A stretch of DNA of 64,000 bases. Origin: a virus. Its lineage: Duplodnaviria > Heunggongvirae > Uroviricota > Caudoviricetes. This document shows, in pieces, positions 5,988-57,729 of this stretch (the stretch's first letter is position 1; each line of letters starts with the position of its first letter). A program made the position numbers and the translations under genes. The notes beneath the pieces were generated by a model. The model worked only from the letters and a program-made list of their open reading frames with translations, ran no database searches and had not been told where the DNA came from. The stretch lies in IMG/VR virus record IMGVR_UViG_3300044796_000656. One strand, written 5' to 3'.

Positions 5988-5988
5988 A

Positions 5989-15320: not shown

Positions 15321-16334
15321 ATGAGTTTAGGACCACAAGCAAGCCTACTTGACATGACTCTGAAAGAGCAACACGCCAAGTATCTAGCAGCCGGACTTGT
15401 TTGCGACCTCTGGGATCGTCTGAACTTCCCAAGGGGAACCCAGTTAATCAAGCAAGCTCAAGACCATGGGTTTGATCTTCCCCAGGAAGTCATTCACATC
15501 TTCTGCGGCGGCTCTAACCTCCACGGCGCCAAAGACGATTCAGGGAAAAGCGATCTGGATATCTGCGGGATCTTCGTTGAACCCCCGGAGCTGGCGCTCG
15601 GGATCGACCGCGATGAGCACTTCATCTCGAAGACCGCGGCCGAAGGCGAACGCAATCAGTCCGGCGATAAAGACTTTACCATCTATTCGCTGCGCAAGTG
15701 GGCGGCTATGGCCTGCAATGGCAATCCCAACGCGCCGCTGTTCCTGTTCGCCCCCGTCGATCCCAAAGGCCAAACAACGGTCTGGGATGCCTATATACGT
15801 CCTAGCGCACATCTGTTCCTGGCCAAGACCACCCTGGTAGGGGATTACGCCAAAAGCGGCCTCTTGGGCTTCGCCAAGGGCATCTGGAAGCGCGCGGAGG
15901 CGGCGCTACGAGGCAAGGAATACCACGAAGCCGGAGGCTTCCTTGGATTTGCCCGCAACATGCTTTACAGGATGCAGGGCAAGCGCGGCCGGGGCAAGAA
16001 GGGGCAGCGGCCGGAACTGGAACTGAAGTTCGGCTACGACACCAAGGCGGCGATGCACATGATCCGCGCCATGTTTGAAGCCATTGAACTGGTCGAGACC
16101 GGGAAACTTGCGTTTCCTAATCGTCAGGTCGAAACCCTGAAGGCGATACGGCGCGGCGAGTGGTCAAAGACTGTCGTTGAGCAGTACTTCGAACAACTCG
16201 AAAGCGAACTGAAGAAACTGGTGCGAAAGTCTGACCTGCGCAAGGAAATTGATCGCGCGGCGGTTTCGAAGCTGGTATCTCGGGCGTACCTCGCCCATTG
16301 GAGACAACGTGAATTCTTTAAGCGTTCTCAATAG
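15321..16334 (+). CDS. Pol-beta superfamily nucleotidyltransferase
   Basis: CGGSNLHG-x8-SDLDICGIF matches the h[GS]x...[DE]h[DE]h nucleotidyltransferase signature. C-terminal helical region. Confidence 0.6.
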   Translation: MSLGPQASLLDMTLKEQHAKYLAAGLVCDLWDRLNFPRGTQLIKQAQDHGFDLPQEVIHIFCGGSNLHGAKDDSGKSDLDICGIFVEPPELALGIDRDEHFISKTAAEGERNQSGDKDFTIYSLRKWAAMACNGNPNAPLFLFAPVDPKGQTTVWDAYIRPSAHLFLAKTTLVGDYAKSGLLGFAKGIWKRAEAALRGKEYHEAGGFLGFARNMLYRMQGKRGRGKKGQRPELELKFGYDTKAAMHMIRAMFEAIELVETGKLAFPNRQVETLKAIRRGEWSKTVVEQYFEQLESELKKLVRKSDLRKEIDRAAVSKLVSRAYLAHWRQREFFKRSQ

Positions 16335-22141: not shown

Positions 22142-22339
22142 ATGCGCGTTGAACTGAAAGTCAGTGTAGACGTTGACGCTGGAGAATGCACCGAAGACCC
22201 TTCCCTGATTGCGGATTCTACTCGCGATGCGGTGTATAACGCCTTGGAGTTAGTACGGGATGAAATGGGATTTACCCATTCACTGAGTGGCGAGATTGCA
22301 CTGAACGATATTGAGGTATCGGTTGAGTCGTACAAATGA
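22142..22339 (+). CDS. small acidic hypothetical protein
   Basis: AGGAGA RBS. 65 aa. Confidence 0.4.
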   Translation: MRVELKVSVDVDAGECTEDPSLIADSTRDAVYNALELVRDEMGFTHSLSGEIALNDIEVSVESYK

Positions 22340-23400
22340 GGATCTCGATCGAACAGATGTCGTTGTTCATGCCGCCTCCGCCGCCGGCCGTTATACCTGA
22401 ACTTGAGCCCATCATTTTACCGCCTGAGGCGCCGGAGGAACCAGTAGCGATTGTTCCCGTGACTGTCCAGGCGGAACCTCACGATTGCGAATGGGTGGCG
22501 TTTATTAGGCAGCATGGCTGCACCCCGGCTCTTGGAGATGCCAAGCAACCCTGGGAGTACAAGGGTTGGCTCATGTATTACCGACTGGCATGTGAAGACC
22601 GCTCCGATGTCGTGCCTCGTTGGAATTACTGGGCGGAGACCATGCAGGCTGGCCGGCTGCTCGATAAGCCGATTCCAAAGCTCGTATTCCATGAAACCAC
22701 CGAACGGGACCCTGAGTACAAGTTGGTCGATAAATGGATCGAGCTTGTTCACCAGAAGAATGGCACCTGGGATTCAGTGCGGGATCTCATGGACTGGTTT
22801 CTATGGGGCTTCGCCGCCGCCGATGCGCCGCCTAAGTTCTCGGCTGAGTTAAACGAGGCGCTGTATAGGCAGGTCAATATCGGGCCGCTGCTTCTAAAGC
22901 CAGCCGATTACTTCGGGTCATGGGTTTTGTTCCACAAAGGATCGTGGAATCCGCATGCCTTCTTTCCAACCCCGATGCACGTTGTCACGTTCATGAATCA
23001 GATGACGTTCGGAACTCAGGAAGGCGATTGCAGACTGAAGACCGTGGCCGATCCTTGTGTCGGGACCGGGCGCTTCTTGATGGACGCGAGTAATCACTCT
23101 TTGTGTCTTTCAGGGATTGACATCGATCCGACGAATCTGGCGGTAGCGAAGGTCAATGCGTACTTGTACGCGCCCTGGCTCGCCCGACCGCTCCCTGAGA
23201 GCATTACTGGATATAAACCTGGACGCTTTGGATTGCACTGCGGCAATTCGCTGTCGCAGGAGATGACGGACTATGGTCTGCTCTCGGAAGCCGAAACGAT
23301 GGCTCTGTGGGATGCCCGGAGACCGCCCAAAGATCCGGACGTGCAACCGACGATAAAGCGGAAGCGCCGTAAGAGTTCAACAATGGAACTGGTTCAATAA
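22336..23400 (+). CDS. SAM-dependent methyltransferase-like protein with N-terminal QMSLF peptide and Pro-rich linker
   Basis: DPCVGTGRFL (motif I-like) and GIDIDPTNLAVAKVN. I see no canonical NPPY/DPPY motif. The N-terminus reads EQMSLFMPPPPPAV. Confidence 0.5.
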   Translation: MRISIEQMSLFMPPPPPAVIPELEPIILPPEAPEEPVAIVPVTVQAEPHDCEWVAFIRQHGCTPALGDAKQPWEYKGWLMYYRLACEDRSDVVPRWNYWAETMQAGRLLDKPIPKLVFHETTERDPEYKLVDKWIELVHQKNGTWDSVRDLMDWFLWGFAAADAPPKFSAELNEALYRQVNIGPLLLKPADYFGSWVLFHKGSWNPHAFFPTPMHVVTFMNQMTFGTQEGDCRLKTVADPCVGTGRFLMDASNHSLCLSGIDIDPTNLAVAKVNAYLYAPWLARPLPESITGYKPGRFGLHCGNSLSQEMTDYGLLSEAETMALWDARRPPKDPDVQPTIKRKRRKSSTMELVQ

Positions 23401-30835: not shown

Positions 30836-31270
30836 ATGGCTCTCAATCGTTATGAAGTAATCGGAAACGTCGGGAAAGATCCCGAGATCATCAAGACCAA
30901 CGGCGGCAAGACCATCGCAAAGTTTTCGGTCGCCACTAACGAGTACGCCGGTAAAGACGGCGGCGGCAAAGCCAAATACGAGACTGAGTGGCACAACGTT
31001 AAGGTATTTGGGTCGAGCGCAGAATACGTCGAGAAGCAACTCAAGGCCGGCGATGTCGTCTTTGTGTCGGGCCGCCACAAGACGGAGACCTACGACAAGA
31101 AGGAAGGTGGCGGCAAGGGCTACTCGATCTTCTGCCAGGTCGGCCTCAATGGCCGAGTCGAACGCGTATCCCGCAAGGAAGGCACCTCGAACGGCAACGG
31201 CAACGGAAATGGTAACAGCTCCAGCGCCACGGAAAAGGCTCCCGAGGTCGAGGAAGAAATTCCCTTCTAG
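30836..31270 (+). CDS. ssb: single-stranded DNA-binding protein
   Basis: OB-fold SSB core (RYEVIGNVGKDPE...EWHNVKVFG). Gly/Asn-rich linker. Acidic tail ending EEEIPF. Confidence 0.85.
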   Translation: MALNRYEVIGNVGKDPEIIKTNGGKTIAKFSVATNEYAGKDGGGKAKYETEWHNVKVFGSSAEYVEKQLKAGDVVFVSGRHKTETYDKKEGGGKGYSIFCQVGLNGRVERVSRKEGTSNGNGNGNGNSSSATEKAPEVEEEIPF

Positions 31271-41459: not shown

Positions 41460-41645
41460 ATGCCAATGTACGACTTTACCTGTACTTCGTGTCTGAAGAC
41501 CTTCGAGAAGATCGTCTCTTCGTATGACACGAAAACCACAACCTGCCCGCATTGCGAAGGAACAGCCGATCGAGTGCCCGGAATCATGGCCCCCGGCTCG
41601 AAGCGACATGTCGGGGTCTACTTCAATTACATGGTGGAGGATTAA
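41460..41645 (+). CDS. FmdB-family zinc-ribbon protein
   Basis: MPMYDFTCTSC...CPHCEG. Confidence 0.6.
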   Translation: MPMYDFTCTSCLKTFEKIVSSYDTKTTTCPHCEGTADRVPGIMAPGSKRHVGVYFNYMVED

Positions 41646-41647
41646 AC

Positions 41648-42672: not shown

Positions 42673-44010
42673 TTGAGAGTAAAAGTAGAAGTGGGTACTC
42701 TGCGCGACGCCGTCGAGCAGGCCCGTGCCACGATCGACAACACCATCCCGACCTTCGCCGGCCTCTATCTTGAGGCTTCCCATGCCACGAATGGCAATGG
42801 CCGAATTCGGGTCTATTCCCAGAAACCCTGCGCTCGTATGCTGGTCGCCATCCCGGCTGAAGTCGAAGTCGAGGGCCGTGTAGTGATCCGGTCGGACCAG
42901 TTATTGACTGGTCTCAAGGGTCACAGTTCCAGCGACTTGGTTGGTCTTACGTTGGTTCAGAGTCAAAAACAGGGAGACAAGAAAGAAGACGGTGGCCGAC
43001 TGTCCGGGGTTGTGAATAATCGTTCCCGGTTTAAGTGCGCCGTTCTTACCGGAGCGTCGCTGTTTGCCGACCAGATCGCCAAACTCCCGCTCAACGGCAC
43101 CAACGGTTCGAAGTTCAACGCCACCATCCTCGCGGATGTCATCAAGAAAGTGGCATGGTGTGCAAACTCCAGCGAGATCAACAAGAGCGTCATCGACTCT
43201 TTGGGATTCAAGCGTACGGAGCATGGGTTCCGGGTGTACGCAACCGACGGTTTTATCGCCGCGCGCGTTTCCGTGAACACGGATCTTTACCCGGAAGAGA
43301 TGACCATCCCCAGACTTCCGCTGGAATTGTTGCAGAAGATCCTCGGCAAGCATTCTGCTGCCGAGATCTCGGTCATTAAGGGAAATGTTGCCGGCGGGGA
43401 ATACCGGGAACTCTACTTTAAGATGGACGAGTTATTTTATGGCGCGTCCACATCCAGCCAGGTCATGCCCAACATCGAGACGGTGTTCCTGGACGAAAAC
43501 CGGATGCCTACGAGAAAGGTGATCGTATCCCGGAACTTGCTTCAGGACATGCTCGGGCGTCTCGTCGGATTTGCCGACAAAGCGGCGCCGGTCATTCACT
43601 TTTCGTTGCTGGATGACAACCTGAAGCTATCGACCGCCAGTGCGGATGGGGACTGCGAAGAAGAGTTTCCGATCGCCTACACTGGCGACAGCAAGTACAA
43701 AACCGGGGAGACGGAAGTCTCGATCGGTTATGCCTTCATTCACAAGTTCCTTTCGGCGATTTCAAACGACCTGATCACGCTGGGATTCCGTGATGAGGTA
43801 AGTCCGATGACCGTGTCCGACGAAGGCAACGACGACATCAACACCCGGTACATCATCATGTGCATCCGTCCGAAGGCCGAAGTGCCTCCGATGCCGGACG
43901 CACCGGTGGTTGTAGCGGTAGCGGTGGCGGTTGTACCCCCGGTCGCAGAGGAAAAAGCCAATGAAGAACAAGACGATGAAATTCCTTTTCCGACAGATGT
44001 TGGGGCCTGA
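42673..44010 (+). CDS. putative DNA polymerase sliding clamp (beta/DnaN-like) with Pro-rich C-terminal extension ending ..DDEIPFPTDVGA
   Basis: TTG start. The N-terminal pattern (VKVEVGTLRDAVEQARATIDNTIPTFAGLYLEAS..GRIRVYSQ) resembles the DnaN domain 1 layout. This is an inference; I see no single diagnostic motif. Confidence 0.45.
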   Translation: MRVKVEVGTLRDAVEQARATIDNTIPTFAGLYLEASHATNGNGRIRVYSQKPCARMLVAIPAEVEVEGRVVIRSDQLLTGLKGHSSSDLVGLTLVQSQKQGDKKEDGGRLSGVVNNRSRFKCAVLTGASLFADQIAKLPLNGTNGSKFNATILADVIKKVAWCANSSEINKSVIDSLGFKRTEHGFRVYATDGFIAARVSVNTDLYPEEMTIPRLPLELLQKILGKHSAAEISVIKGNVAGGEYRELYFKMDELFYGASTSSQVMPNIETVFLDENRMPTRKVIVSRNLLQDMLGRLVGFADKAAPVIHFSLLDDNLKLSTASADGDCEEEFPIAYTGDSKYKTGETEVSIGYAFIHKFLSAISNDLITLGFRDEVSPMTVSDEGNDDINTRYIIMCIRPKAEVPPMPDAPVVVAVAVAVVPPVAEEKANEEQDDEIPFPTDVGA

Positions 44011-44137
44011 GTTTTGGCTTCTGGTCGTGATCGGCGTATTGATCTATTACCTGTTCATGTGGAGGATGAGCCTGCGGGAGCGCATCCTCTGCATGGCGGG
44101 TGAGTTCGCCAAGGGGGCGATGAGACATGCAATTTAG
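43961..44137 (+). CDS. small membrane protein
   Basis: One TM helix. Confidence 0.35.
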   Translation: MKNKTMKFLFRQMLGPEFWLLVVIGVLIYYLFMWRMSLRERILCMAGEFAKGAMRHAI

Positions 44138-44822
44138 TCTGATGCTGGAGACAGAGACAACGTCGGAGACGGTCGCAGACGTGATCAAAGAGTTGCGGCA
44201 GGGACCATGTACCCGGTGTCATCTTTGTGTTCTGCATCCGAACAATCGGGGCACCATGTACCGCGGCAATCCCAACGCCAAGATTGCGGTCGTCGATATC
44301 GCCCCGGGCGATACGGAAATGACTCAGGGCCTGCCCCTGATTGGATCGGGAGGCCAGGAGTTCGAGAAGTGGATGCGTTACCTGGCGATTGATACCCGCA
44401 ATGACATCTTTGCGACGCAGGTCATCCACTGTCAGCCGCCTCGGAAGAAAGCAAAAGACGGACGATACGAACAGCAGGAACCCGACAAAGACGAAATCGC
44501 CGCTTGCTGGTATCCCCGCACGGTGCGCATCTTGAAAGCCATGATGAATCTGGAGTGCATCATCACTTTGGGTTGGCCGGCGGCAAAGGCTGTACTCGGG
44601 ACTGATGTGATCGCCAAGACCCATGAAGGTCGCTGGTTCGTCACTGACTTGATCCCGAAGGTGGCTGTGTTTTGTCTATCTCATCCGGATACATGTCTGG
44701 TTGATCCTACTCCCGAAAAGAAGGGTAGAATCCAAGGCGTTCTTGATTGTTTCCGCCGAGAATATCTCATCTCCCGCAAAGTCGTGAAGATCGCTCGCGA
44801 AACCATTATCCCCATTCAATAG
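44127..44822 (+). CDS. uracil-DNA glycosylase, family 4-like
   Basis: CTRCHLC cluster. GNPNAKIAVVDIAPGDTE...GLPLIGSGGQEF matches the GEGP..A..MFVGEAPG...G.PFVG pattern. Confidence 0.7.
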   Translation: MQFSLMLETETTSETVADVIKELRQGPCTRCHLCVLHPNNRGTMYRGNPNAKIAVVDIAPGDTEMTQGLPLIGSGGQEFEKWMRYLAIDTRNDIFATQVIHCQPPRKKAKDGRYEQQEPDKDEIAACWYPRTVRILKAMMNLECIITLGWPAAKAVLGTDVIAKTHEGRWFVTDLIPKVAVFCLSHPDTCLVDPTPEKKGRIQGVLDCFRREYLISRKVVKIARETIIPIQ

Positions 44823-44922: not shown

Positions 44923-47913
44923 ATGAGTACGGCAACTGAAGTTATGACTACGGGGTTGGAGTTTGGCCGCCATTTTAGCGATGGCAAAAATCCGTTCAAC
45001 ACTGTCGAGTGGGAAACGCGCGATGCCCAGATCACCGATGCCAAGGGCGCAATGGTCTTCGAACAGAAGGGTATTGATGTCCCTAAAGACTGGTCCATGA
45101 CCGCGACGAATATTACTGCCAGCAAGTATTTTCACGGCAAAATTGGTACGCCGGAACGTGAGTCGAGTGTCTCTTCGCTAATCGCGCGTGTTGTCTCAAC
45201 GATCACGAGTTGGGGAAAGAAGGATGGTTACTTCAAGACCGAACGCGATGCTCAAATCTTTACCGACGAGCTGGCGACACTGCTAGTAAAGCAGTACGGG
45301 ACATTTAACTCGCCGGTCTGGTTCAACGTCGGCTGCGACGCTCTGGAGCCCGAGTCGAAGACGGCTAACTGGCACTGGGACTATGCCGAGACCAAAGTCC
45401 GTTTCGACCGTGTCGGGTACAGCCGGCCGCAGTGCTCGGCATGCTTCATCAACAGCGTCAAGGACGACATGGTTTCGATCCTGGAGCTGGCCAAGACTGA
45501 AGGCATGCTCTTTAAGTGGGGTTCGGGCACGGGGACAAATCTATCGCCCCTGCGTGCCGATGGGGAACTCCTGGCCGGCGGTGGGACCGCCAGCGGGCCT
45601 ATCTCGTTCATGAAGGGATTCGACGCCTTTGCCGGAGTCATCAAGAGCGGCGGCAAGACTCGCCGCGCTGCCAAGATGGTGATCCTGAACGCCGATCATC
45701 CGGATATCGAGGCTTTCATCGAGTGCAAGGGTAAAGAAGAAGCCAAGGCGCATGCCCTGATCTCGGTGGGATACGACGGCAGCGGCCCGGAGTCGGAAGC
45801 CTATAACTCCATCTTCTTCCAGAACGCCAATAACTCAGTCCGCGTGACCGATGACTTCATGAAGTCGGCGGTTGAAGGTGGCGGCGTCGATGACACCTGG
45901 CCACTCACTGCGCGCACTAACGCAGAACCGTTACGCTTTGTGAGTGCCGAAAAACTTCTGGACAAGATGGCGAAGGAAGCCTGGAGTTGTGGAGATCCGG
46001 GTATCCAGTTCGACAGCAAGATCAACGAATGGCATACCTGCAAAAGAAGCGGCAGGATCAATGCCAGCAATCCATGCAGCGAGTTCATGTTCCTCGATGA
46101 CACGGCCTGCAATCTGGCGTCGCTGAACTTGCTGAAGTTCCTTAAAGAAGACGGCACGTTCGACGTCACCGGCTTCGTTCAGGCGGTTCATCTCTTCATC
46201 GTCGCCCAAGACATCCTGATCGATAACTCGGGGTACCCGACGGAAGCGATTGCCAAGAACTCGCATGATTTCCGGCCGCTTGGTCTGGGATATGCGAACC
46301 TCGGCGCCATGCTGATGGCGATGGGGGTTCCCTACGACAGCGACCAGGGCCGCGGCATTGCCGCTGCCATTACCGCGATCATGACCGGCACGGCGTATGC
46401 CCGCTCGGCTCACATGGCTGCGTCGCTTCCTCGTATCGAAGCCGCTGGTGAATTTGACTCTCCGTTGGTCGCGACCTTCCCTGGATATTGGGAAAATCGC
46501 GAATCGATGGCGGAAGTCATCGCCAAGCACACTCTGATGGCCCGCACCCTCTATGCCGAGATCCCCGAGTATCTACGCGAAGCTGCGTGTGACTCTTGGG
46601 GCGCTGCCGGCGACTGGGGTCGTAAAGTCGGGTTCCGCAACTCGCAGGTAACTGTCCTGGCGCCGACCGGAACGATCGGTTTCATGATGGACTGCGATAC
46701 CACAGGCGTCGAGCCTCTGCTCGGACTTGTGGTGTTCAAGAAGTTGGTTGGTGGCGGCTTTATGAAGTTACCGAACGGGGTTGTTCCGAGAGCCCTCCGC
46801 AGCCTGGGATACACGCAGTTCGAAGCCGATGGCATCTTGAAGCACGTCCAGGATTTCGGAACAGTCGAGGCAAGCACGCTCGACAAGGACCATCTGGATG
46901 TCTTCGATTGTGCCCTTCGGCCGCAACAGGGTAAGCGTTCAATTGCCTGGACCGGTCACATCCGAATGATGGAAGTGGTTCAGCCGTTTCTTTCCGGTGC
47001 GATCTCGAAGACGGTCAATATGCCCGAGGAGACCACGGTGGAGGATGTTAAGACGGCCTACATCGAGTCCTGGCGCCGCGGGCTGAAGTCGGTTGCCATC
47101 TATCGCGACGGTTCCAAGAAGAACCAGGTACTCGTTACCAAGCGTGATGAGAGCAAGGATATGGGGTCGATTATGAAGACAGCAACTGCTTTGGAAGATC
47201 CGTTAGGAGAAGTGGCCCGAATTGGTTTGGAAGCAAGCGATCAGAAGCAATCATTCTATCGGCCTCCGAAGACGGTCGAGACGATTGACATGGCCGCGCC
47301 GCCCAAGGCCGTGCGCCACAAACTTCCTGACGAACGGATGGCCCTTACCCACAAGTTCAACATTGCGGGGCATGAGGGATACCTGACGATCGGGTTGTAT
47401 GCCAATGGCCAGCCGGGTGAGATCTTCATCACGATGTCGAAGGAAGGTTCGACCATGTCGGGGCTGATGGACAGCTTCGCGATGGTGGTATCCGTGGCCC
47501 TGCAACACGGGGTTGCTCTGACAACGTTGATTGACAAACTTGCGCATACGCGCTTCGAGCCTAGCGGTTGGTCTCAGAACCAGCAGATCGGCTACGCCAA
47601 GTCGATCATGGATTACATCTTCCGCTATCTCGAACAACGGTTTGTGAAGGGCGAACAGTTGTCGTTCTTCGCGCAAACGCCACCGGCGAATGCAGTCGTA
47701 AAGGAAGTTCCCCAGGTGGAACCTAAAGCTGAATATCCGGTGGAGTCTTTAAGTGTCCTTTTAGGTATGGAGTCCGGTCACGCTGCCGACAAGATGGCGG
47801 AGTTGATGGACTTTGGAGATGCCCCGAGTTGTTCGGTTTGCGGAGCCATCATGGCCCGCAACGGCTCTTGCTACAAATGCATGTCCTGCGGTTCAACCAG
47901 CGGGTGTTCGTAG
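44923..47913 (+). CDS. nrdJ: class II (adenosylcobalamin-dependent) ribonucleotide reductase
   Basis: Active-site motif NPCSEF. About 1000 aa monomeric layout. C-terminal CSVCG...CYKCMSCG zinc finger. Confidence 0.9.
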   Translation: MSTATEVMTTGLEFGRHFSDGKNPFNTVEWETRDAQITDAKGAMVFEQKGIDVPKDWSMTATNITASKYFHGKIGTPERESSVSSLIARVVSTITSWGKKDGYFKTERDAQIFTDELATLLVKQYGTFNSPVWFNVGCDALEPESKTANWHWDYAETKVRFDRVGYSRPQCSACFINSVKDDMVSILELAKTEGMLFKWGSGTGTNLSPLRADGELLAGGGTASGPISFMKGFDAFAGVIKSGGKTRRAAKMVILNADHPDIEAFIECKGKEEAKAHALISVGYDGSGPESEAYNSIFFQNANNSVRVTDDFMKSAVEGGGVDDTWPLTARTNAEPLRFVSAEKLLDKMAKEAWSCGDPGIQFDSKINEWHTCKRSGRINASNPCSEFMFLDDTACNLASLNLLKFLKEDGTFDVTGFVQAVHLFIVAQDILIDNSGYPTEAIAKNSHDFRPLGLGYANLGAMLMAMGVPYDSDQGRGIAAAITAIMTGTAYARSAHMAASLPRIEAAGEFDSPLVATFPGYWENRESMAEVIAKHTLMARTLYAEIPEYLREAACDSWGAAGDWGRKVGFRNSQVTVLAPTGTIGFMMDCDTTGVEPLLGLVVFKKLVGGGFMKLPNGVVPRALRSLGYTQFEADGILKHVQDFGTVEASTLDKDHLDVFDCALRPQQGKRSIAWTGHIRMMEVVQPFLSGAISKTVNMPEETTVEDVKTAYIESWRRGLKSVAIYRDGSKKNQVLVTKRDESKDMGSIMKTATALEDPLGEVARIGLEASDQKQSFYRPPKTVETIDMAAPPKAVRHKLPDERMALTHKFNIAGHEGYLTIGLYANGQPGEIFITMSKEGSTMSGLMDSFAMVVSVALQHGVALTTLIDKLAHTRFEPSGWSQNQQIGYAKSIMDYIFRYLEQRFVKGEQLSFFAQTPPANAVVKEVPQVEPKAEYPVESLSVLLGMESGHAADKMAELMDFGDAPSCSVCGAIMARNGSCYKCMSCGSTSGCS

Positions 47914-48826: not shown

Positions 48827-49304
48827 ACTCGGCGACAGCGCCTTCGATGTGTTCTCGAATGAGTACATCGAGCTGAAACCCTATGACATGGCTACCGTTC
48901 ATACCGGCATTGCCTATCAGACGCCGCCAGGTTGGGCGTTGCAGGTCTTCAGTCGCTCCGGTCTGACGCGCAACCATGGGGTTACTACCCGCGGCGGTGT
49001 GATCGACAACGGTTACACCGGGGAAATGGTCGTCGTGCTCAAGAACGAAGGCCGGGAGACGTTCCTGATCGAGCCGGGCGACAAGATCGCTCAGGTGAAG
49101 CTGGAACGTCATTACGAGGCTTCGTTTGAGGAAGTCGCCGAACTCGATGCCACCGAACGTGGCGCCAATGGATTTGGGTCCACGGGAATGAGTGAAAGGC
49201 CGGTCTGCGACGGTTGTCAGTCTGGAATTGCATTGACGGAGGACGGTAGGACTCACGTCACGCGAGGTCTTGTCTACGGACCCTGCACAAAATCATTGCA
49301 GTAA
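48699..49304 (+). CDS. dut: dUTPase
   Basis: Motifs GDSAFDV, GVIDNGYTGE and ERGANGFGSTG. Start may be the TTG at 48743. Confidence 0.8.
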   Translation: MQVRNSVPVRELTSVQLLHGLILVKVKRLDPKAKLPEYAHVGELGDSAFDVFSNEYIELKPYDMATVHTGIAYQTPPGWALQVFSRSGLTRNHGVTTRGGVIDNGYTGEMVVVLKNEGRETFLIEPGDKIAQVKLERHYEASFEEVAELDATERGANGFGSTGMSERPVCDGCQSGIALTEDGRTHVTRGLVYGPCTKSLQ

Positions 49305-49314
49305 GGGGAAGGCA

Positions 49315-50025
49315 ATGCATTTAGGAAAACTGATCACCGTGGAAGGTACCGATGGTTCCGGTAAAGGTTCTTTACTGAACCGCCTGGAGAAAGCTCTTAG
49401 GGATATGGGCCATGATGTGTTGCGTTCCAGGGAGCCAGGGGCTTCAAACGTCGGTGAAGTTCTACGTGATCTGATGTTCAAGAATCCGGGTTCGGCTCCT
49501 CGGCCTGATGGCGCGATTCCCCTTTCGGGTGCTCAAGTAGATTGCCTGATGTTATGTGACCACATCGGTCATGTGGCTCAGGTAATCCTGCCGGCCCTGA
49601 AACAGGGTAAGTGGATCTTGAGTGACAGGTATGCCGACTCACAGTTCGCTTACTGTGCCGCGCGGGAACACTCTGACCACATCAACGAAGCGTTCTGGAA
49701 GCATTATGGGCCTATGCCGGACATTACGATTCTCCTGGTCGGCGACGTCAATGAGATGTTGCGCCGTGCTAAGACTCGTGATGATTCCCCGGACGCCAAG
49801 GAACCTGGAAAACAGGCGGCAAAGAGCTGGAGCAAAGTCGAGATGCAGACCCGTATCCAGAACGCCTATCTGCATAACCTGAGCAACCAACCCAGGACCG
49901 TCATCGTGGAGGTGACTGGCAAGACGAAAGAACAGGTGTTCGAGGATGCTTTCGAGCGCATGTTCATTAAGCTCGCCCAGCGCCCGAAGGTAACCCAATC
50001 AACCATCTTTGAAGCAGTTCAATAG
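49315..50025 (+). CDS. tmk: thymidylate kinase
   Basis: P-loop VEGTDGSGKGS. LID-like region. Confidence 0.8.
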   Translation: MHLGKLITVEGTDGSGKGSLLNRLEKALRDMGHDVLRSREPGASNVGEVLRDLMFKNPGSAPRPDGAIPLSGAQVDCLMLCDHIGHVAQVILPALKQGKWILSDRYADSQFAYCAAREHSDHINEAFWKHYGPMPDITILLVGDVNEMLRRAKTRDDSPDAKEPGKQAAKSWSKVEMQTRIQNAYLHNLSNQPRTVIVEVTGKTKEQVFEDAFERMFIKLAQRPKVTQSTIFEAVQ

Positions 50026-50027
50026 GA

Positions 50028-51467
50028 GTGCCCGTGGCCAAGAAAACAGGCGCTCCAAAAGCGCCCAGGATCAAGAAGCCTCGGAAGTCTAAGTCTTATG
50101 CTCCCCGGCGCGCACAGGTCTCCGGGGTTCACAGTGTTGCGATCGAGGAAGAAGTCCCAGTCCCTTATTGGGTTGTGGGAAGTTCCGACTGGATCGACAA
50201 CTGGTTTGATCTCGATGCGCTTCCCGAGGGGAGGGTACTGCGAGTTTCTTCGCCCGGGGATCTTGGCCAGATCAAGGAGGAACTTTCCAAAGAGCCCATA
50301 CATACGCTGGATACCGAAACCGGCCAGGATGTAAACACGCGTGCGGACGCCAGTGAGTTCGACAAGGTATGGGGAATGGAACCCTGGATGCCTACGTCTC
50401 AGGTGCTAATGGCGCAGTATGGCACCGCGCGTCGGCCGCTGATTCTCGAACCCCGGTTACTGGGAGAGTTGCGTTGCTTCCTGGAATCGGACCAGTTCTT
50501 GAAAATCCTTCAAAACTCAGTGTTCGATTTCAAGTTTTTACTGAAAAAGCACGCTGTCCATCTGGTGCGCATTTACGACACCATGCTTGCCGAACAGGTC
50601 TTGACCGCCGGCCGACCGGGTCTGAAGGTCACATTGCTGGATCTGGCAAGACGTTACGCGCCATACCGGATCATCCGAAAGGATGTCCGTGATGAGTTTG
50701 TGACGTTCAAGATCGGTATCCAGAAGTTCTCCAAAGAGATGACTGATTACTCAGGGCGAGACATAGTCTTGCCGCCCGATATTATGGCCGGCCAGGTCCC
50801 TGAGCTTCGCAAATGGAAGTTGGAAGACGTTGCCAAGGCGGAGTTCGAATGTGTCCCCTGCACGGCGGAGATGGAGCTTTTCGGGGTCCACCTGGACGGT
50901 GACATTCTCGAACTGGCGCTTACTGCTTACCGGGAAGATGACATTGAGTTGCGCGAGAAGATCATGGCTGCCGTGGGTTCGTCCTTAGCAGATGCCGGTC
51001 ACTCTATGGGCCTGTTCGGCCAGGAGGGATTCTCGTTCGATCTGAAGTCAATCCCCGAACGCCTGCGGATCTTCCGGGATCTGTTGGGTTTCGACATGGA
51101 AGACGCTACGCGCGAGTCCATGTTGAATATCCCGCACGAAGCCGCCCAGGACATCGCCAAGTGGACAGCAGTAGATAAAGTCCTAACCACGTATGGCGAC
51201 GGTCTGATCAAGAAGATCTCACCGTACGATGGCAGATTCCATCCGAGGTTTAGTCAGCTCGGACTGGGCGACCAGGAAGCCCGGAGCGGTAAGAAGACCA
51301 ACATCGCCACCGGACGTTACTCCTCGAACTTCCAGCAATTACCGAAACCCATCGAACGCTTTGCCAAGGTCGCTGACCTGGGCGAGCAGGGCATGATCAA
51401 TGCCACGTTCGAAGCGCAGATCGCGCAGATACGTCAGCAGAGGGGATTGCTACATGCCGCAGCCTAG
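50028..51467 (+). CDS. DNA polymerase I family, N-terminal fragment (3'-5' exonuclease and thumb), ending just before motif A
   Basis: Exo I LDTETG. TGRYSSNFQQLPKP aligns with the TGRLSS..PNLQNIP element. Ends with a stop codon. Confidence 0.75.
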   Translation: MPVAKKTGAPKAPRIKKPRKSKSYAPRRAQVSGVHSVAIEEEVPVPYWVVGSSDWIDNWFDLDALPEGRVLRVSSPGDLGQIKEELSKEPIHTLDTETGQDVNTRADASEFDKVWGMEPWMPTSQVLMAQYGTARRPLILEPRLLGELRCFLESDQFLKILQNSVFDFKFLLKKHAVHLVRIYDTMLAEQVLTAGRPGLKVTLLDLARRYAPYRIIRKDVRDEFVTFKIGIQKFSKEMTDYSGRDIVLPPDIMAGQVPELRKWKLEDVAKAEFECVPCTAEMELFGVHLDGDILELALTAYREDDIELREKIMAAVGSSLADAGHSMGLFGQEGFSFDLKSIPERLRIFRDLLGFDMEDATRESMLNIPHEAAQDIAKWTAVDKVLTTYGDGLIKKISPYDGRFHPRFSQLGLGDQEARSGKKTNIATGRYSSNFQQLPKPIERFAKVADLGEQGMINATFEAQIAQIRQQRGLLHAAA

Positions 51468-51840
51468 CCAGGAAGTAAAGGTCGGCCAGATCTGGAAGGA
51501 CAACGACCGACGGGAGAAACACCGTCTGGTCCGTGTGGAGTCAATCGACGGTCGGTTTGCGGTTTGCGTTTGTACTACGGGAAACCAGCCAAACCGCAGG
51601 TATCGAATCCAACTTTCCAGGTTCAGACCGATTTCCACCGGATACGTTTTTTGGGGGGATGCTGACGGAGTGGAACTAAAGATAGATAAACGCTACGTCT
51701 TCGGGATCTACATTCCCGAAGGTGGTGATCCGAACGCCATTCCGGTCCTGGAACGTGTGCAAATCAGGGCTCCCGTGATTCATAGCCAAAGTGAATCCGA
51801 TGAAGGTTCTGTAGCAGGAGACAACCATGTCGCAAGCTAA
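51456..51840 (+). CDS. hypothetical protein (insertion ORF 1)
   Basis: ATG overlapping the end of the upstream fragment. 128 aa. Confidence 0.45.
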
Positions 51841-52258
51841 CCAGCAGGTATTCAGGTCGGTTGTAGTTCGTTCCTCAGAAATTGAGGACGAGACGCTCAG
51901 GGAACAGATCGACGGTCGGATGATGTCCTACGAGCAGGCGCTGATGGAGGAATCCTCGGCGCAGTTAGACGTCGAACGCGCGACGGCGAAGTTGCTGCGT
52001 GCCCGGGCCTCGCGTATGGAGTCCCGCGCGGCGGTGCAGGAGTCGTTCGGCAAGGGGGATTCCAGAGTCGCGATGGAACCAAATCCATGGGAGCCCTTCA
52101 GAGATAACAGGGGAGGTGTCTGCATCGAGAACTTCCTGTCGCAGCGAGACCAGCGGAACATGATGCGCGCTCAGAAAGCCAACATGAACCGCCAGGTCGA
52201 GCAGATGACCGAGGGAAACCACGGGGACATGTTCGAGCACGGAAATAACGAATCATGA
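51827..52258 (+). CDS. hypothetical protein (insertion ORF 2)
   Basis: 143 aa. Confidence 0.45.
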   Translation: MSQANQQVFRSVVVRSSEIEDETLREQIDGRMMSYEQALMEESSAQLDVERATAKLLRARASRMESRAAVQESFGKGDSRVAMEPNPWEPFRDNRGGVCIENFLSQRDQRNMMRAQKANMNRQVEQMTEGNHGDMFEHGNNES

Positions 52259-52671
52259 ACATGCAGGCATCGTTATTCGACCCGGCACCGGAGCCTGAAG
52301 TACCGGTGCCTTCTTTTTCCCTGAGTCCTAAGGAAGTCAAGGCCGTCAAGATTGCCAAGCCTCCAGCGCCTGAGATGACCGTGATCCCTGCGCGACCGTT
52401 TCATCCATCTCAGAAACTCGACCTGCCTGCTTGGTTGCGCAAGCACAAGTACGACCTGATTCTTTGTGAACTGGTGGTGCGTGCCAAGACTATCGAGGCT
52501 AACCACCTGCATACCGAAGGGTCTGAGGCTGAGTTGAAGTATCTCCTTGAAGCCTACGGAGGAGACGAGACGCTACTCCGCGCCGATGTCGTGGATACCG
52601 CGCAGTATATCCAGCGGCACCACATGCAGGCAGCAGCTCACAGAACAACCGAAGAAACGAGTCTGACCTAA
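52255..52671 (+). CDS. hypothetical protein with N-terminal QASLF peptide (insertion ORF 3)
   Basis: MNMQASLFDPAPEPEVPVP. Confidence 0.5.
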   Translation: MNMQASLFDPAPEPEVPVPSFSLSPKEVKAVKIAKPPAPEMTVIPARPFHPSQKLDLPAWLRKHKYDLILCELVVRAKTIEANHLHTEGSEAELKYLLEAYGGDETLLRADVVDTAQYIQRHHMQAAAHRTTEETSLT

Positions 52672-53685
52672 ATGGGCACGCAAGCAATGCTGTTCGACTC
52701 TCTGGAGGTGGCGCCGCCGCCGGCTATTGTGACGGCTGGAGCTGGGATCACAGTCAGTACGAAGCCGGTATTCATTGCGACCGTTGATGGCAAATCGTAT
52801 TACCTCGACCTTGATCCCAAGTCCCCGACGTTTAACCAGACGATCTGGAAGGTGCCGGATATCCGTGATGCAGTCACAGCCGAACCCGGCTACCAGATTG
52901 TCGCCAGCGATTATTCGCAGATCGAAATTCGCATCATGGCCTTTCTGTCGAAAGATCCGTGGCTCATTGCCGCGATCAACTCGAAGAAGGACATGCACTG
53001 CTACATGGCAACGGATGTCTTCGGTGAGGAGATGGGCTTCACGTATGAAGACATCGCCGCGGCCACGAAGGGTGAAGATCGAAATTCGCATCCGCGCCAT
53101 AAGGAACTGAACGACGTTCGCAACAATATCAAGCGGACCTCGTTTGGAATCCCCTACGGCGTATCGCCCATTGGACTTTCGTACCTGATCAACAAAGACG
53201 AGAAGTTCGCCGCCATGTTGATGGCCCGCTTCTTTGGGAAAGCCAAAGAGTTAAAGCGTTGGCTTGAAAACCAGGGCGACTTCGCGATCCGGTATGGCTA
53301 CACCTCGACCCTGTTGGGCCGCAAGCGGTTCTATCCAATCCCCTCGCCGGAAGATCCGCGCGCCGAGGAAATGCTTTCTCAGATCCGCCGTTGGAGTGGT
53401 AACCATCCTGTCCAGGGTTCGAACGCCGACATGTTAAAGCTGGCGCTTAACAAGTTGTATCTGGACGTACGTGATGGCGTGTACACCAATCCGGCTAAGT
53501 GGGGAACCCGCCTGTTGTTCGTGGTTCACGATGAAATCGTTGCGACCTGTGAGACCGAACATGCTCCCAAACTGAAAGTAGTTGTGGAGAATGCGATGGA
53601 CTGGGCATACGAACGGCTGATCGGATCGAACAACGTTTATCACAAATCAAAGGCCGTCATCGCCGATGTATGGGCGAAGGCATAA
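52672..53685 (+). CDS. DNA polymerase I family, C-terminal catalytic fragment (motifs A, B, C) with N-terminal QAMLF peptide
   Basis: Motif A DYSQIEIRIMAF. Motif B RNNIKRTSFGIPYG. Motif C VVHDEIV. Has its own ATG and begins MGTQAMLFDSLEVAPPP. Confidence 0.8.
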   Translation: MGTQAMLFDSLEVAPPPAIVTAGAGITVSTKPVFIATVDGKSYYLDLDPKSPTFNQTIWKVPDIRDAVTAEPGYQIVASDYSQIEIRIMAFLSKDPWLIAAINSKKDMHCYMATDVFGEEMGFTYEDIAAATKGEDRNSHPRHKELNDVRNNIKRTSFGIPYGVSPIGLSYLINKDEKFAAMLMARFFGKAKELKRWLENQGDFAIRYGYTSTLLGRKRFYPIPSPEDPRAEEMLSQIRRWSGNHPVQGSNADMLKLALNKLYLDVRDGVYTNPAKWGTRLLFVVHDEIVATCETEHAPKLKVVVENAMDWAYERLIGSNNVYHKSKAVIADVWAKA

Positions 53686-54852: not shown

Positions 54853-57729
54853 ATGCGACGTTACAAACTGCCTGTCGGGCAGATGGCGTTCTTCGACCTC
54901 TCCCCTGAGGAGGTTGTGCAACCGAAACAGGAAGTTCCAATTCCTCAGGAGGTTCCAGCAAGTACCGAGGTTTCGGAAAAAGTTGTGCCGTTGATCTCGC
55001 TTCCGCCGCTGCCGTTGGCGCTTCCACCTGCTCCGGAACCGGTTGTGCCGGAGATCATCTTCGCCGAGACGCCATCGGTGACGTTCCATAAGAACGGCAA
55101 GAAACTGCTGATTCGTGCGAACGACGTTGTCGCGGCCGACCTGTGGCGCGAGATCCAGGACCGCCTGGACAACGAACGCATGCGCAACATGCAGTATTTC
55201 ACGGGCCAGAACACGTTCCAGGCGATCGCCCCCGAGAAGGAGCTGATCGGCCTGTGGCGCTGGATACTGACCGGGCTGGATGTGCATCCTTACAAGTCGC
55301 TGTTGGAGGCTTGCGGAATCACGGTCCACATCTCACCTTCGCTGGCCGGTTACATGCGGGCGGAGAAGAAACATATCGAACTGGAGAAAGCGCCGTTTGT
55401 TTGCTACTCGTCTTCCAATGACGATCTGGAGCAGTGCGTCCAGGCGGGTATGATCCTTCGCGCCACCACTAAGCGGGATGACTTTGAAGTCGGAAAACGG
55501 TACATGGTAAAGCAGGTCACGAACGGTAGGGCACATATCTATACCGCTCCCCTGCAAGGCCGGACGTTGCTGAGTGACACTGCGGAGACCACGGAAGTTC
55601 TCATAACCCGTTTGAATTCGAGATTCGAAGATGCCGACAAGTTCGTCATCGACGCCAATATCCGTGATCTGTTTCCCGACCGGATAGCACAGGAAGAAGC
55701 GAAGCTGGCGAAACTCGACATTCACGACAAGCTGTTTCTGCACGTCAAGGAGGACGTGGTAACGGAAACCCCCAAGCGCGGCTTCATGTGTTCGAAGGAA
55801 ATGCGGATGGGTAAATCGTCGGAGGCCCTGGCAAACTGCGAGATGAAAGGCTCGAAGGCAATTGCCTGGATCAGTCCCTCCGACGCCATGATCGACACCA
55901 CGGGCGAATTCCAGAAGCGGGGCGTCTTCGATTATTTCGAAGTCCGTAAGATGTCTGACCTGGCGGTGCCGACGAAGTATCACCTGTTCACCTACGACAC
56001 GATCAAGAAGTCGAGAGATCCCCTGGCAGCCGAGCGCCGCGGTCAGAAGACTCGTACCTGGCTGCGCGCGATGGGTCAGGAAGGTGGGCACGAAGGCGCC
56101 AATTGCCCTCATTGCGAACAGGCGCTGGAACGGCCGATCAAGACCAAGGATGCCCTCGGAAAGATCATCTCCGTCTCATGGGTGACGAGCAACGGGTATA
56201 TCTGCCGCAATCCTGAATGCCAGTGGGAAGAAAGACACTGGAAGAGGAAGTCGGGCAGCGAGACCAAAAGACCTACCCATCGAGGGGCGGCCTGGGATCT
56301 GGGCACGCATCGTGTTGGCCGGCGGAAGTGCTACATCGACTGGGAGCGCATGAAGCACGCCGAGTGCGGCGACCATGTCGGTCGTCACCGTATCTGTCCG
56401 AAATGCGGCGTCGTGGATTCGGCCTGGGTTCCTCCGATGTACAAGAGGATCAGCAAGAACTATGCGACTGTCGTTGTCGATGAATCCCACACCACCAAGG
56501 ACGACACCTCTAAGGCGTCTCGGGCGGGTCTGGCGTTCCGGGGCAGGCATCATATCCTGCTGACCGGCACGCCGATGTCAAAAGACCTGCTCGATATGTA
56601 CTATCCCTTGATGTGGGCGATGAAGGGGCCGACGCTGGTCTTTCCGTTCAGCCGGGGCGATAGCATGTCTCCCTTCAAGCAACGCTTCTGCGAGGACGTG
56701 TTGATCCAGAGGGAGGGTTCCAAGGGGCATTACAAGACGTTGCCTTACCCAAAGAACCCGGTTGATTTGTGGAACTTCCTGGCGCCGATCATCGTGCGTC
56801 GCACGCGGCAAGATGAAGTCTACAAACAATCGTTGGATGCACTCAACCTGAAGCTCCCGACTTCCGATCCGCGCGTCACCTCGGTCAAGATGGTTCCTCC
56901 GCAGGCTCTTCTGATGCTCGATTCTATCGAGAAGTTCAAGGAGGATTTTGCCGAGTATGTCCAGACCGTCGAGGAGAAGGGACACGCACTCAACGAATCG
57001 CTAGTCATCAGCCAGATGTCGAGGATGGTGATCGCGGCGACCGTTCCGGCCATGCTGAATAAGAAGAACGAGCCCGTAATCTACGATGGCGGTGAATACG
57101 ATCTCGATGGCATGGGCGGGAAGGGAATCGCGTTGGGTTCGCTGCTGCCGGCGAAGGTGATGGAGGGTAACAAGGTCGTTGTATTGAGTCAGTTCCCGTT
57201 CATGCGCAACCTGATTGCCGAGAGGTTCGTCCAGCTTAACCCGGTACTCATGCTGTCCAACGGGGTCGACAAGAAACGTGCGCTGCTCGCCGAGTTCCGT
57301 AAAGGCGACGAGCATCCTGTGTTGATTGCCGGCCCGAAGCAGATCTGTCAGGGAATCGACTTGAACTGCGCAGACGTCATGATATGTGTTGACCTGCTGT
57401 GGGAGGCTGCCAAACAACAGCAGGCGCTCAATCGGTTGATGGGGCCGACGGAGAACGACAGGGTTGTGCAGATATACACCCTCAATAGTTTGCACTCGAT
57501 TGATGAACACAAATACAGGGTCTTTTACGGGAAGGTCGCGGGGATGGAACAAACCCTGGACAAACGTGTGATTACTCGCACGGCCCGGGAAGTCAACTGG
57601 AAGATGTTTGTCGATCAGGTGGTCGAACAGGAAGAAGCCATCGCAGCTTATCTCCGCGAGGTCGGCAACGATCATACGGTCGTTCTGCCTGACTTCATGG
57701 ACGATGTACTTTTGGAGAGGGTCGTATGA
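54853..57729 (+). CDS. SNF2/RAD54-family helicase with internal zinc-finger insert and N-terminal QMAFF peptide
   Basis: DExH box VVVDESH. HELICc region with QGIDL. The N-terminus reads GQMAFFDLSPEEVV followed by a Pro-rich linker. Confidence 0.85.
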   Translation: MRRYKLPVGQMAFFDLSPEEVVQPKQEVPIPQEVPASTEVSEKVVPLISLPPLPLALPPAPEPVVPEIIFAETPSVTFHKNGKKLLIRANDVVAADLWREIQDRLDNERMRNMQYFTGQNTFQAIAPEKELIGLWRWILTGLDVHPYKSLLEACGITVHISPSLAGYMRAEKKHIELEKAPFVCYSSSNDDLEQCVQAGMILRATTKRDDFEVGKRYMVKQVTNGRAHIYTAPLQGRTLLSDTAETTEVLITRLNSRFEDADKFVIDANIRDLFPDRIAQEEAKLAKLDIHDKLFLHVKEDVVTETPKRGFMCSKEMRMGKSSEALANCEMKGSKAIAWISPSDAMIDTTGEFQKRGVFDYFEVRKMSDLAVPTKYHLFTYDTIKKSRDPLAAERRGQKTRTWLRAMGQEGGHEGANCPHCEQALERPIKTKDALGKIISVSWVTSNGYICRNPECQWEERHWKRKSGSETKRPTHRGAAWDLGTHRVGRRKCYIDWERMKHAECGDHVGRHRICPKCGVVDSAWVPPMYKRISKNYATVVVDESHTTKDDTSKASRAGLAFRGRHHILLTGTPMSKDLLDMYYPLMWAMKGPTLVFPFSRGDSMSPFKQRFCEDVLIQREGSKGHYKTLPYPKNPVDLWNFLAPIIVRRTRQDEVYKQSLDALNLKLPTSDPRVTSVKMVPPQALLMLDSIEKFKEDFAEYVQTVEEKGHALNESLVISQMSRMVIAATVPAMLNKKNEPVIYDGGEYDLDGMGGKGIALGSLLPAKVMEGNKVVVLSQFPFMRNLIAERFVQLNPVLMLSNGVDKKRALLAEFRKGDEHPVLIAGPKQICQGIDLNCADVMICVDLLWEAAKQQQALNRLMGPTENDRVVQIYTLNSLHSIDEHKYRVFYGKVAGMEQTLDKRVITRTAREVNWKMFVDQVVEQEEAIAAYLREVGNDHTVVLPDFMDDVLLERVV

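Follow-up and report, generated by a model that had tools for sequence, protein, structure and literature searches.

A probable clamp-centred hub built on N-terminal peptides in the replication module of an uncultured phage

The stretch of DNA analysed here (64,000 nucleotides of IMG/VR record IMGVR_UViG_3300044796_000656, Caudoviricetes; referred to as the window) is a module for DNA replication and nucleotide metabolism from an uncultured, phage-like replicon. Five of its proteins carry a short Q-x-x-[LFM]-[FLM] peptide close to the N-terminus: the catalytic half of a split family-A DNA polymerase (PolA-C), an SNF2-family helicase/translocase, a family-4 uracil-DNA glycosylase (UDG), a protein resembling N6-methyltransferases (the MTase-like protein), and a 138-residue product of an open reading frame next to the polymerase (ORF-B). 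The window also encodes a homologue of the beta-type sliding clamp, at 42673. Judged from sequence comparison, the phage probably runs a clamp-centred protein hub built on N-terminal clamp-binding peptides.

How would such a hub work? The peptides would be beta-clamp-binding motifs of the QL[SD]LF type, carried on flexible, proline-rich tethers, and would dock in the hydrophobic cleft that domains II and III of the clamp form between them. As receptor, the phage-encoded clamp is the most likely candidate, and the clamp of the host may also be usable. Docking would bring PolA-C, SNF2, UDG, the MTase-like protein and ORF-B to clamp-marked primer-template junctions. A tether of ~25 residues between PolA-C and one cleft would give the polymerase processivity, and the other four proteins would compete for, or time-share, the two clefts of a dimeric ring in the manner of a “tool-belt,” which would allow them to act on new DNA.

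The N-terminal peptide and its bearers

A Q-x-x-[LF]-F peptide lies in the first 14 residues of four proteins, those whose genes start at 22336 (MTase-like protein), 52255 (ORF-B), 52672 (PolA-C) and 54853 (SNF2), and is followed in each by a proline-rich linker. The original prediction, which was made from the letters of the window alone and had read these peptides as a probable clamp-binding motif, quoted all four exactly as they occur in the sequence. The starts of these proteins are credible: GGGAGGG lies 7 nucleotides 5' of 54853, and at 22336 and 52255 the start codon overlaps the upstream stop codon as ATGA. The well-supported motifs, which include that of UDG, all fall between residues 2 and 14. 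The linkers contain 16–33% proline, compared with a proteome background of 5%, in keeping with their earlier description as proline-rich.

The peptides resemble a well-known sequence. QL[SD]LF, or QxxLxF, is the bacterial clamp-binding motif of Pol III alpha, Pol II, Pol IV, UmuC, MutS, delta and Hda. QMSLF, QASLF, QAMLF, QMAFF and QFSLML all conform to QL[SD]LF/Qxx[LMIF][FL] (or QLxLxL), such that the match to the bacterial pentapeptide that had been proposed at the outset holds. A different clamp-binding sequence, the PCNA-interacting peptide (PIP) box Qxx[ILM]xx[FY][FY], was considered and rejected: positions 7–8 of QMSLFMPP, QASLFDPA, QAMLFDSL and QMAFFDLS do not hold an aromatic pair.

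The position of the motif is strongly biased. The proteome used for counting comprises 93 genes and 18,411 residues, with the gene set derived from codon usage. Q..[LF]F occurs six times in this proteome, and four of the six occurrences are inside the first 15 residues, where 0.16 would be expected (Poisson P = 2.6e-5, an optimistic value, as are all P values here, given that the pattern was defined post hoc). Similarly, composition-preserving shuffles of the N-termini contained a mean of 0.087 occurrences and a maximum of two, and 0 of 5000 shuffles reached four. The copies use different synonymous codons (CAG/CAA, TCG/AGT/AGC, TTG/TTA/CTG/CTA), which indicates that selection acts on the peptide rather than on a DNA repeat. 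The identity of the sequences flanking the copies is ~25–45% of bases for most pairs, with a range of 17–50%. Between them, the differing codons and the unrelated flanks rule out an artefact of DNA repeats or of start regions.

Conservation of the motif in orthologues is a form of support that does not depend on the post hoc choice of pattern. The prediction had named the absence of the motif from orthologues in related phages as a result that would count against it; the motif was found in orthologues of PolA-C, SNF2, ORF-B and UDG, and in the family of the MTase-like protein, with several of the orthologue sets comprising two to five members only. The motif is kept while the linkers drift, a hallmark of short linear motifs.

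The polymerase is split between two genes that jointly span the exonuclease and polymerase domains, with the motif on the catalytic half, as the earlier reading had it. The catalytic residues are invariant (D80, Y81, Q83 and E85 of motif A; H286, D287 and E288 of motif C). There are 361 homologues of PolA-C at E<=1e-10, and the 120 listed are ~250–360 residues long, meaning that a polymerase split of this type is widespread. More than 100 of the listed homologues have no tail and start at the conserved core (…GKEYY…WRVPDIRE). An N-terminal extension is found only in the five closest homologues (58–99% identity) among those listed, and in all five it contains Q-x-x-hydrophobic-hydrophobic followed by a proline-rich stretch (QAMLF, QQSLLL, QPSTLF, QMAIPI(DLL) and QIQMM). 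Thus, on this comparison, the tail of PolA-C is a clade-specific add-on under selection. An AlphaFold2 model of PolA-C, built on a 50-sequence alignment, has a mean predicted local distance difference test score (pLDDT) of 91, with residues 1–25 below 50, so that the motif is predicted to lie on a flexible tail preceding the folded palm and fingers. No locus related to PolA-C was found in a scan of viral contigs, and the best tblastn match in cultured phages is 30% identical.

The other bearers add to this picture. UDG, encoded at 44127, begins MQFSLML; the orthologue in the related locus L008 is identical, and that in L001 reads VQQFSLLPML. The true start of the L007 orthologue is a GTG seven bases 3' of AAGGAGG, giving MQFSLMLEMPE. 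As far as these sequences go, the UDG motif is as well supported as the four motifs noted originally. For the L006 orthologue of ORF-B, the gene caller had placed the start at the second ATG; read from the first, which overlaps the upstream stop, the protein opens MQASLFDMAPEP (MQASLFD). ORF-B itself has no Pfam, NCBIfam or PHROG match. The SNF2 orthologues in syntenic contigs read QISFFDL (L006), QISFFNL (L005) and PVSFFDL (L001).

The MTase-like protein belongs to a family of 590 members with a conserved core that starts at residue ~45–55 and matches only positions 11–99 of the 311 of N6_Mtase. In the protein of the window, SAM-binding motif I (DPCVGTGRFL) is accompanied by a GNSL element, and the translation contains no NPPY/DPPY, i.e., no motif IV (D/N)PP(Y/F). 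Since only the SAM-binding part and no NPPY-type motif is present, the name “methyltransferase” is not established; going by these motifs, the protein may be a non-catalytic or split SAM-binding module. Among the best 150 of the 590 members, 10 have Q..LF in residues 2–24; the expectation from shuffles is 0.55, and none of 2000 shuffles contained as many as 10. The family N-termini include QLSLF (twice), QLDLF, QLGLF (twice), QLTLF and others. The background for this comparison was composition-preserving shuffles; a background taken from the rest of the protein is inflated by a conserved internal QGLLF column.

Taken as a whole, the original prediction of a hub is supported by the homology of the clamp, the motifs of the orthologues, the predicted disordered tail and the fit to QL[SD]LF. 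Its wording needs adjustment in two respects. The phrase “four replication proteins” stands for the polymerase and SNF2, as does the label given to the clamp, but ORF-B has no family and the methyltransferase label is below threshold. The four listed bearers are all real, but the list was too short, with UDG being a further well-conserved bearer.

Two observations concern the polymerase genes more generally. The half that carries the exonuclease, PolA-N, starts with a very basic tail, PVAKKTGAPKAPRIKKPRKSKSYAPRR (50028–50130 of the window), and the tails of the L001 and L004 orthologues are basic too. This tail could bind DNA, or the acidic tails of SSB or the clamp. In addition, a protein of ~140 residues is encoded between the PolA halves in every relative examined (window 51827–52258, L001 8843–9265, L004 2094–2510, L006 1020–1460 and L018 9578–9997). 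It has no family match, and its C-terminus is a variable, acidic tail in which a Phe after M, Y or L is invariant: DMF(E), AMF(E), GYF(E) or GLF(R). One possibility is that the protein serves the polymerase as an accessory subunit and docks through a terminal peptide of its own; its tail may be a similar but older tether.

The phage clamp and its tail

The candidate clamp named in the original prediction proved to be a full-length beta-clamp homologue. It matches phrog_947, “DNA polymerase processivity factor,” at 2e-27 (residues 1–400 on 3–365 of 368) and TIGR00663, dnaN, at 1.7e-13 (residues 3–399 on 3–366 of 367). Its score for Pfam DNA_pol3_beta_3 is 33.4 bits, against a cutoff of 27, and its matches to PDB profiles at E<=0.05 are to beta clamps only. 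These profiles place the 42673 product inside the beta-clamp superfamily as a genuine, if strongly diverged, member, and not as an orthologue of cellular DnaN.

Alignment to the T. maritima and E. coli clamps pairs the conserved segments ATDGF, P266/V271 and YIIMCIR of the phage protein with ATDGH, P242/V247 and YVVMPMR, respectively, of the E. coli protein. In E. coli clamp structures, the cleft is lined by ATDGH (T172–H175), P242/V247 and YVVMPMR. The core of the phage clamp has an isoelectric point (pI) of 5.97, which fits a ring-forming clamp by the criterion of Kazlauskas and Venclovas (PMC3201878). Few relatives of the clamp came to light, three in all, with 51–56% and 98–99% identity. 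Word-based searches with and without the low-complexity tail returned two relatives, and a scan of metagenome contigs returned two loci. There was no related locus in viral contigs or genome contigs, and tblastn found no match in 50,697 phage records.

The clamp has an unusual C-terminus. It extends 45 residues past the strand where cellular clamps end, through a Pro/Val/Ala linker to EEQDDEIPF. In all six frames of the window, [DE]{3}IPF occurs only twice: in this tail, and at the C-terminus of the phage SSB, EEEIPF* (31250–31267). The clamp orthologue P0122 has a longer tail, of 110 residues, that contains EEEDDDPF. The tail resembles the C-terminal hexapeptide of bacterial SSB, DDDIPF, which recruits SSB partners (PMC5872125, PMC7145534). 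No report of a clamp with an SSB-tip-like tail was found in the literature, and this tail may be a more surprising element than the clamp-binding peptides themselves. The tail may belong to a second network of short motifs, or may serve the clamp in regulating its own cleft. Separately, a 243-residue protein encoded just 3' of the window (L012 13420–14151) has DEDEIPFDF near its N-terminus.

Between the clamp and UDG genes, overlapping the end of the former, lies a gene for a small predicted membrane protein (MKNKTMKFLFRQMLGPEFWLLVVIGVLIYYLF…, 43931–44137) that is kept in the window, L007 and L008. The clamp, this protein and UDG together occupy the position that corresponds to a clamp-loader gene in L018, a distant syntenic relative on a 141-kb contig; there, a loader subunit of the DNA_pol3_delta2 type (L018 1–1036) lies directly 5' of the ribonucleotide reductase (RNR) gene.

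Alternative readings, further candidates and setting

Beyond the post hoc definition of the pattern, several findings weigh against a hub centred on the phage clamp. The clamp scores 50.3 bits in TIGR00663, compared with an equivalog cutoff of 137.65. Its alignment to the E. coli clamp is weak (hhalign probability 6.5%), and several residues of the cleft are changed, with H175 replaced by F, R176 by I, and L177 by A. An AlphaFold2 model built on a three-sequence alignment reached a pLDDT of 35, meaning that the geometry of the ring and its clefts rests on sequence alignment. The C-terminal extension emerges at the strand of the cleft and might occupy or regulate the cleft. Some of the peptides are also atypical: the PolA-C variants QIQMM and QMAIPI are far from the consensus, and two SNF2 orthologues have no Q. 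Lastly, no clamp loader was found by Pfam, NCBIfam or tblastn with the L018 loader in the ~84 kb viewed of the 96.3-kb contig (the window plus ~20 kb of flanks, L012 and L015). The tblastn search returned only P-loop-level matches, and the AAA protein at 61770 is Cdc48/PAN-like.

The main rival explanation accepts the peptides as genuine and makes the host beta clamp their receptor, either borrowed in its loaded state or sequestered/poisoned, with the phage clamp having some other role or other partners. The peptides match the universal bacterial consensus rather than an idiosyncratic one, and QLSLF/QLDLF is found in many representatives of the MTase-like family that need not have a phage clamp. 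The lack of a loader gene in the ~84 kb viewed also speaks for this explanation, and there is precedent in MuC, a phage protein that uses the host clamp via such a motif (PMC12867686). Nonetheless, a full-length phage clamp is kept in the middle of the replication module, with 51–56% identity in relatives, and a single sample gave both a PolA-C with QQSLLL (L006, 75% identical) and a clamp (L007, 56% identical). The tail of PolA-C, moreover, is a clade-specific addition. On balance, exclusive use of the host clamp seems rather unlikely. Cross-binding of the host clamp is likely, because the motif is so universal, and recognition of the phage clamp and of the host clamp are mutually compatible.

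Two further explanations are much less likely than the use of the host clamp. The peptide could be a signal unrelated to clamps, such as a degron, a tag that directs proteins to a phage replication compartment or into packaging, or a handle that some other hub protein of the phage grips. Sorting and degradation signals typically occupy a strictly N-terminal position in proteins that are otherwise unrelated, ORF-B has no known DNA function, and the candidates include thymidylate kinase and an RNR linker motif, which are not classical clamp clients. However, N-terminal placement of a clamp-binding motif has a precedent in Hda (PMC5397184), and the peptide sequence equals the clamp-binding consensus, including Ser/Asp at position 3 and Leu-Phe at positions 4–5. 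The polymerase, UDG, SNF2 and MTase-like classes carry clamp-binding or PIP motifs elsewhere, and no gene for a protease or a compartment shell was seen in the window. A signal of this kind is thus improbable. Still further down the scale is the possibility that the resemblance reflects chance, or a nucleotide-level constraint near start codons, which we regard as very improbable. In favour of chance, the motif is short, its definition was post hoc, and its relaxed form Q..[LFMI][FLM] is found 25 times in the proteome. Set against this are the four N-terminal copies where 0.09–0.16 would be expected, the differing synonymous codons, flanks without consistent similarity and, above all, conservation in orthologues of five protein families; chance is largely refuted by the orthologue data.

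The proposed hub could also be part of something larger. It is conceivable, if unlikely, that the replisome is wired by two orthogonal peptide networks, with QxxLF peptides, mostly N-terminal and in some cases C-terminal, leading to the clamp, and an SSB-type acidic tip shared by the clamp, SSB and the 243-residue protein. The QxxLF bearers would be PolA-C, SNF2, UDG, the MTase-like protein and ORF-B, and possibly thymidylate kinase, RNR, the ligase and the ~140-residue protein. The clamp could then be both hub and client, for example by docking on a site that reads SSB tails, or by gating its own cleft with its tail. If this were true, the ring would tether enzymes of deoxynucleoside triphosphate (dNTP) synthesis too, providing a physical basis for substrate channelling at the phage fork.

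Some additional candidates deserve mention, at lower confidence than the five proteins of the proposed clamp-centred hub. The tail of thymidylate kinase, …QSTIFEAVQ*, and that of its L001 orthologue (5898–6605), …QAPLFASVQ*, share Q-x-x-[IL]-F-x-x-V-Q*; if this motif is true, an enzyme of dNTP synthesis would be tethered to the clamp. A nucleotidyltransferase resembling RlaP (Pfam RlaP 1.5e-16, phrog_388 2.3e-46) has a similar peptide near its N-terminus. The class II RNR has QLSFFAQTPP (QLSFFAQTPPANAVV, 47656–47700) between the TSCPD domain and the C-terminal zinc-finger tail, and was rejected as a candidate given that the L001 orthologue does not have the motif. The N-region of an ATP-dependent DNA ligase (KLQLMFPPRPQSAFL) and DQSLIDLF of the RecA-like protein were not counted, being too degenerate or of uncertain start.

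Two other N-termini were noted in passing. The N-terminal region of the ligase, MALTMPQVNNKLQLMFPPRPQSAFLSQ (7103–7180), may hold degenerate motifs and a proline stretch, with ATG 7013, 7103 or 7115 as the start. The Rad52/Mgm101-like protein has a hydrophobic start, MSTQAVVPS(A/V)S(V/Q)FFNF, in its relatives at L007 9–791 and L011 9169–9951; the copy in the window (41552–42430) starts MSTQGQTAVSDVLPGVLLPSP, which has no motif match.

The setting of these genes is that of a replication module. The window is 55% G+C, and nearly all coding is on the + strand. Pfam, NCBIfam and PHROG profiles identify two ATP-dependent ligases, the RlaP-like nucleotidyltransferase, RtcB, a C5 methyltransferase, SSB, dCMP deaminase, a RecD2 helicase and the Rad52/Mgm101-like annealing protein. 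They also identify the beta-clamp homologue, the family-4 UDG, the class II RNR, dUTPase, thymidylate kinase, the two-gene split family-A polymerase, HU, the SNF2 helicase and a Cdc48-like AAA ATPase. The flank 3' of the window adds the RecA-like protein and a Toprim-DnaB primase-helicase. Contigs of ~96.3 kb from two samples, Ga0480581_000271 and Ga0480571_000206, contain the window, and no structural module is obvious in the ~84 kb viewed. Searches of cultured phages by megablast and tblastn found no relative of the region, with none related at the DNA level.

Table 1. Coordinates of the motif-bearing proteins, their candidate motifs, the clamp and associated features (positions in the window)
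Feature	Coordinates	Strand	Basis or remark
MTase-like protein, N-terminus MRISIEQMSLFMPPPPPAV	22336..23400	+	Q codon at 22354
ORF-B, N-terminus MNMQASLFDPAPEPEV	52255..52671	+	Q codon at 52264
PolA-C, N-terminus MGTQAMLFDSLEVAPPP	52672..53685	+	Q codon at 52681
SNF2, N-terminus MRRYKLPVGQMAFFDLSPEEVVQP	54853..57729	+	Q codon at 54880
QMSLF, candidate clamp-binding motif of the MTase-like protein	22354..22368	+	enriched in family N-termini
QASLF, candidate clamp-binding motif of ORF-B	52264..52278	+	kept in L006 orthologue
QAMLF, candidate clamp-binding motif of PolA-C, residues 4–8	52681..52695	+	orthologue peptides
QMAFF, candidate clamp-binding motif of SNF2	54880..54894	+	orthologue peptides
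QFSLML, candidate clamp-binding motif of UDG, residues 2–7	44130..44147	+	orthologue peptides
Motif-spanning peptides			MGTQAMLFDSLE / MGTQAMLFDSLEV (PolA-C), MQASLFDPAPE (ORF-B), GQMAFFDLSP / VGQMAFFDLSPE (SNF2), IEQMSLFMPPP (MTase-like protein), MQFSLMLETE (UDG)
Beta-type sliding clamp core, residues 1–400, presumed receptor	42673..43872	+	profile matches
Clamp C-terminal extension: Pro/Val/Ala linker, then EEQDDEIPF	43873..44010	+	DDEIPF at 43972–43989
Phage SSB ending EEEIPF*, reference for the clamp-tail element	30836..31270	+	Pfam SSB 7.6e-23
PolA-N, 3'-5' exonuclease and first part of the polymerase domain	50028..51467	+	DNA_pol_A_exo1 1.7e-9; DNA_pol_A positions 68–133
PolA-C, palm and fingers catalytic fragment	52672..53685	+	Pfam DNA_pol_A 8.9e-45, profile positions 140–362
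ORF-B, 138 residues: N-terminal motif, proline-rich linker, ~90-residue C-terminal domain	52255..52671	+	
SNF2-family helicase/translocase, N-terminal motif and ~60-residue proline-rich linker	54853..57729	+	SNF2-rel_dom 7.4e-9; phrog_62 DNA helicase 2.2e-30; Shine-Dalgarno GGGAGGG
N6-MTase-like protein, N-terminal motif and ~40-residue proline-rich linker	22336..23400	+	N6_Mtase E = 0.0097, below cutoff, positions 28–99 of 311
Family-4 uracil-DNA glycosylase	44127..44822	+	Pfam UDG 2.3e-14; TIGR00758 UDG_fam4 9.8e-19
QSTIF, five residues from the C-terminus of thymidylate kinase (gene 49270..50025)	49996..50010	+	low confidence, two sequences
QASLL, residues 6–10 of the RlaP-like nucleotidyltransferase (15321..16334), start MSLGPQASLLD	15336..15350	+	window copy only, low confidence

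Comparison with known systems

The idea of a phage clamp as a hub has a model in T4. T4 gp45 is a PCNA-like trimer, loaded by gp44/62, whose clients gp43, gp55, gp33, RNase H and ligase bind through C-terminal motifs. The system proposed here would be alike in that a phage clamp serves as a docking platform for the phage's own enzymes via short terminal peptides. It would differ in the type of clamp, in that the T4 motifs are C-terminal and of another sequence, and in that T4 encodes its loader. A functional analogy can also be drawn with eukaryotic PCNA, for which N-terminal PIP motifs are found on UNG2, DNA ligase I and MSH6, and further PIP motifs on DNMT1 and ZRANB3. In both cases the tethered proteins would include a uracil glycosylase, one of methyltransferase type and a translocase of the SNF2 family, each held by a short and often N-terminal peptide on a disordered linker. 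The clamp is a different one, however, and the phage peptides do not follow the PIP pattern.

The closest likeness in sequence is to the bacterial clamp-binding motif, with which the phage peptides share their chemistry, their location in an extended, disordered terminal segment, and the use of one receptor by many enzymes. The well-supported phage copies are all N-terminal, unlike the bacterial copies, which are mostly C-terminal or internal. Hda is similar to the phage proteins in this respect: its N-terminal 6-QLSLPL-11, in a flexible loop, binds the clamp cleft (PMC5397184). A further difference lies in the clients, which in the phage would be a split PolA, SNF2, a family-4 UDG and the MTase-like protein, and in the presumed receptor, which appears to be a very divergent clamp.

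For family-A polymerases, two bacterial examples are relevant. The actinobacterial PolA2/APEX has a clamp-binding 120-QSSLF-124 in a vestigial exonuclease domain (PMC12926913), and M. tuberculosis PolI has a clamp-binding 457-QLSLLDD-463 within its Klenow fragment (bioRxiv 10.64898/2026.09.19.751633). Both are family-A polymerases with a QxxL[FL] peptide, followed by an acidic residue as in QAMLFD. In contrast to PolA-C, theirs are internal loops of single-chain bacterial enzymes; the phage motif is at a new N-terminus that was created by a split just before motif A, and is on the catalytic half only. Coupling of a family-A polymerase to a beta clamp was recognised only in 2026, with PolA2/APEX and M. 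tuberculosis PolI, and the system described here would be a phage case. The presence of a tether at the break point of the polymerase suggests how splitting and gaining a processivity factor can go together.

The pairing of a beta clamp with PolA in phages is itself not new. Phage homologues of polIII-beta (phrog_947), among them those of Ma-LMM01 and RSL1, were proposed in 2011 to be processivity factors in phages that have a beta clamp and PolA (PMC3201878). The same study reported neither a clamp-binding motif on PolA nor a set of clients, and found that Ma-LMM01 and RSL1 encode a gamma-like loader (PMC3201878). Like these two, the phage described here is large and encodes both a family-A polymerase and a beta-type clamp, and the core of its clamp has the low pI of ring-forming clamps. 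It differs from them in the lack of a loader in ~84 kb and in the SSB-tip-like tail of its clamp.

Tethering enzymes to a clamp by short peptides is therefore a familiar principle. The novelty would lie in applying it to a split phage polymerase, and in a phage-specific set of clients around a divergent phage clamp. Should the proposed hub prove true, it would provide the first list of clients for a phage-encoded beta-type clamp, in parallel with UNG2, DNMT1 and ZRANB3 as clients of PCNA. Because the peptides are short and defined, the hypothesis is directly testable with peptides and one recombinant protein.

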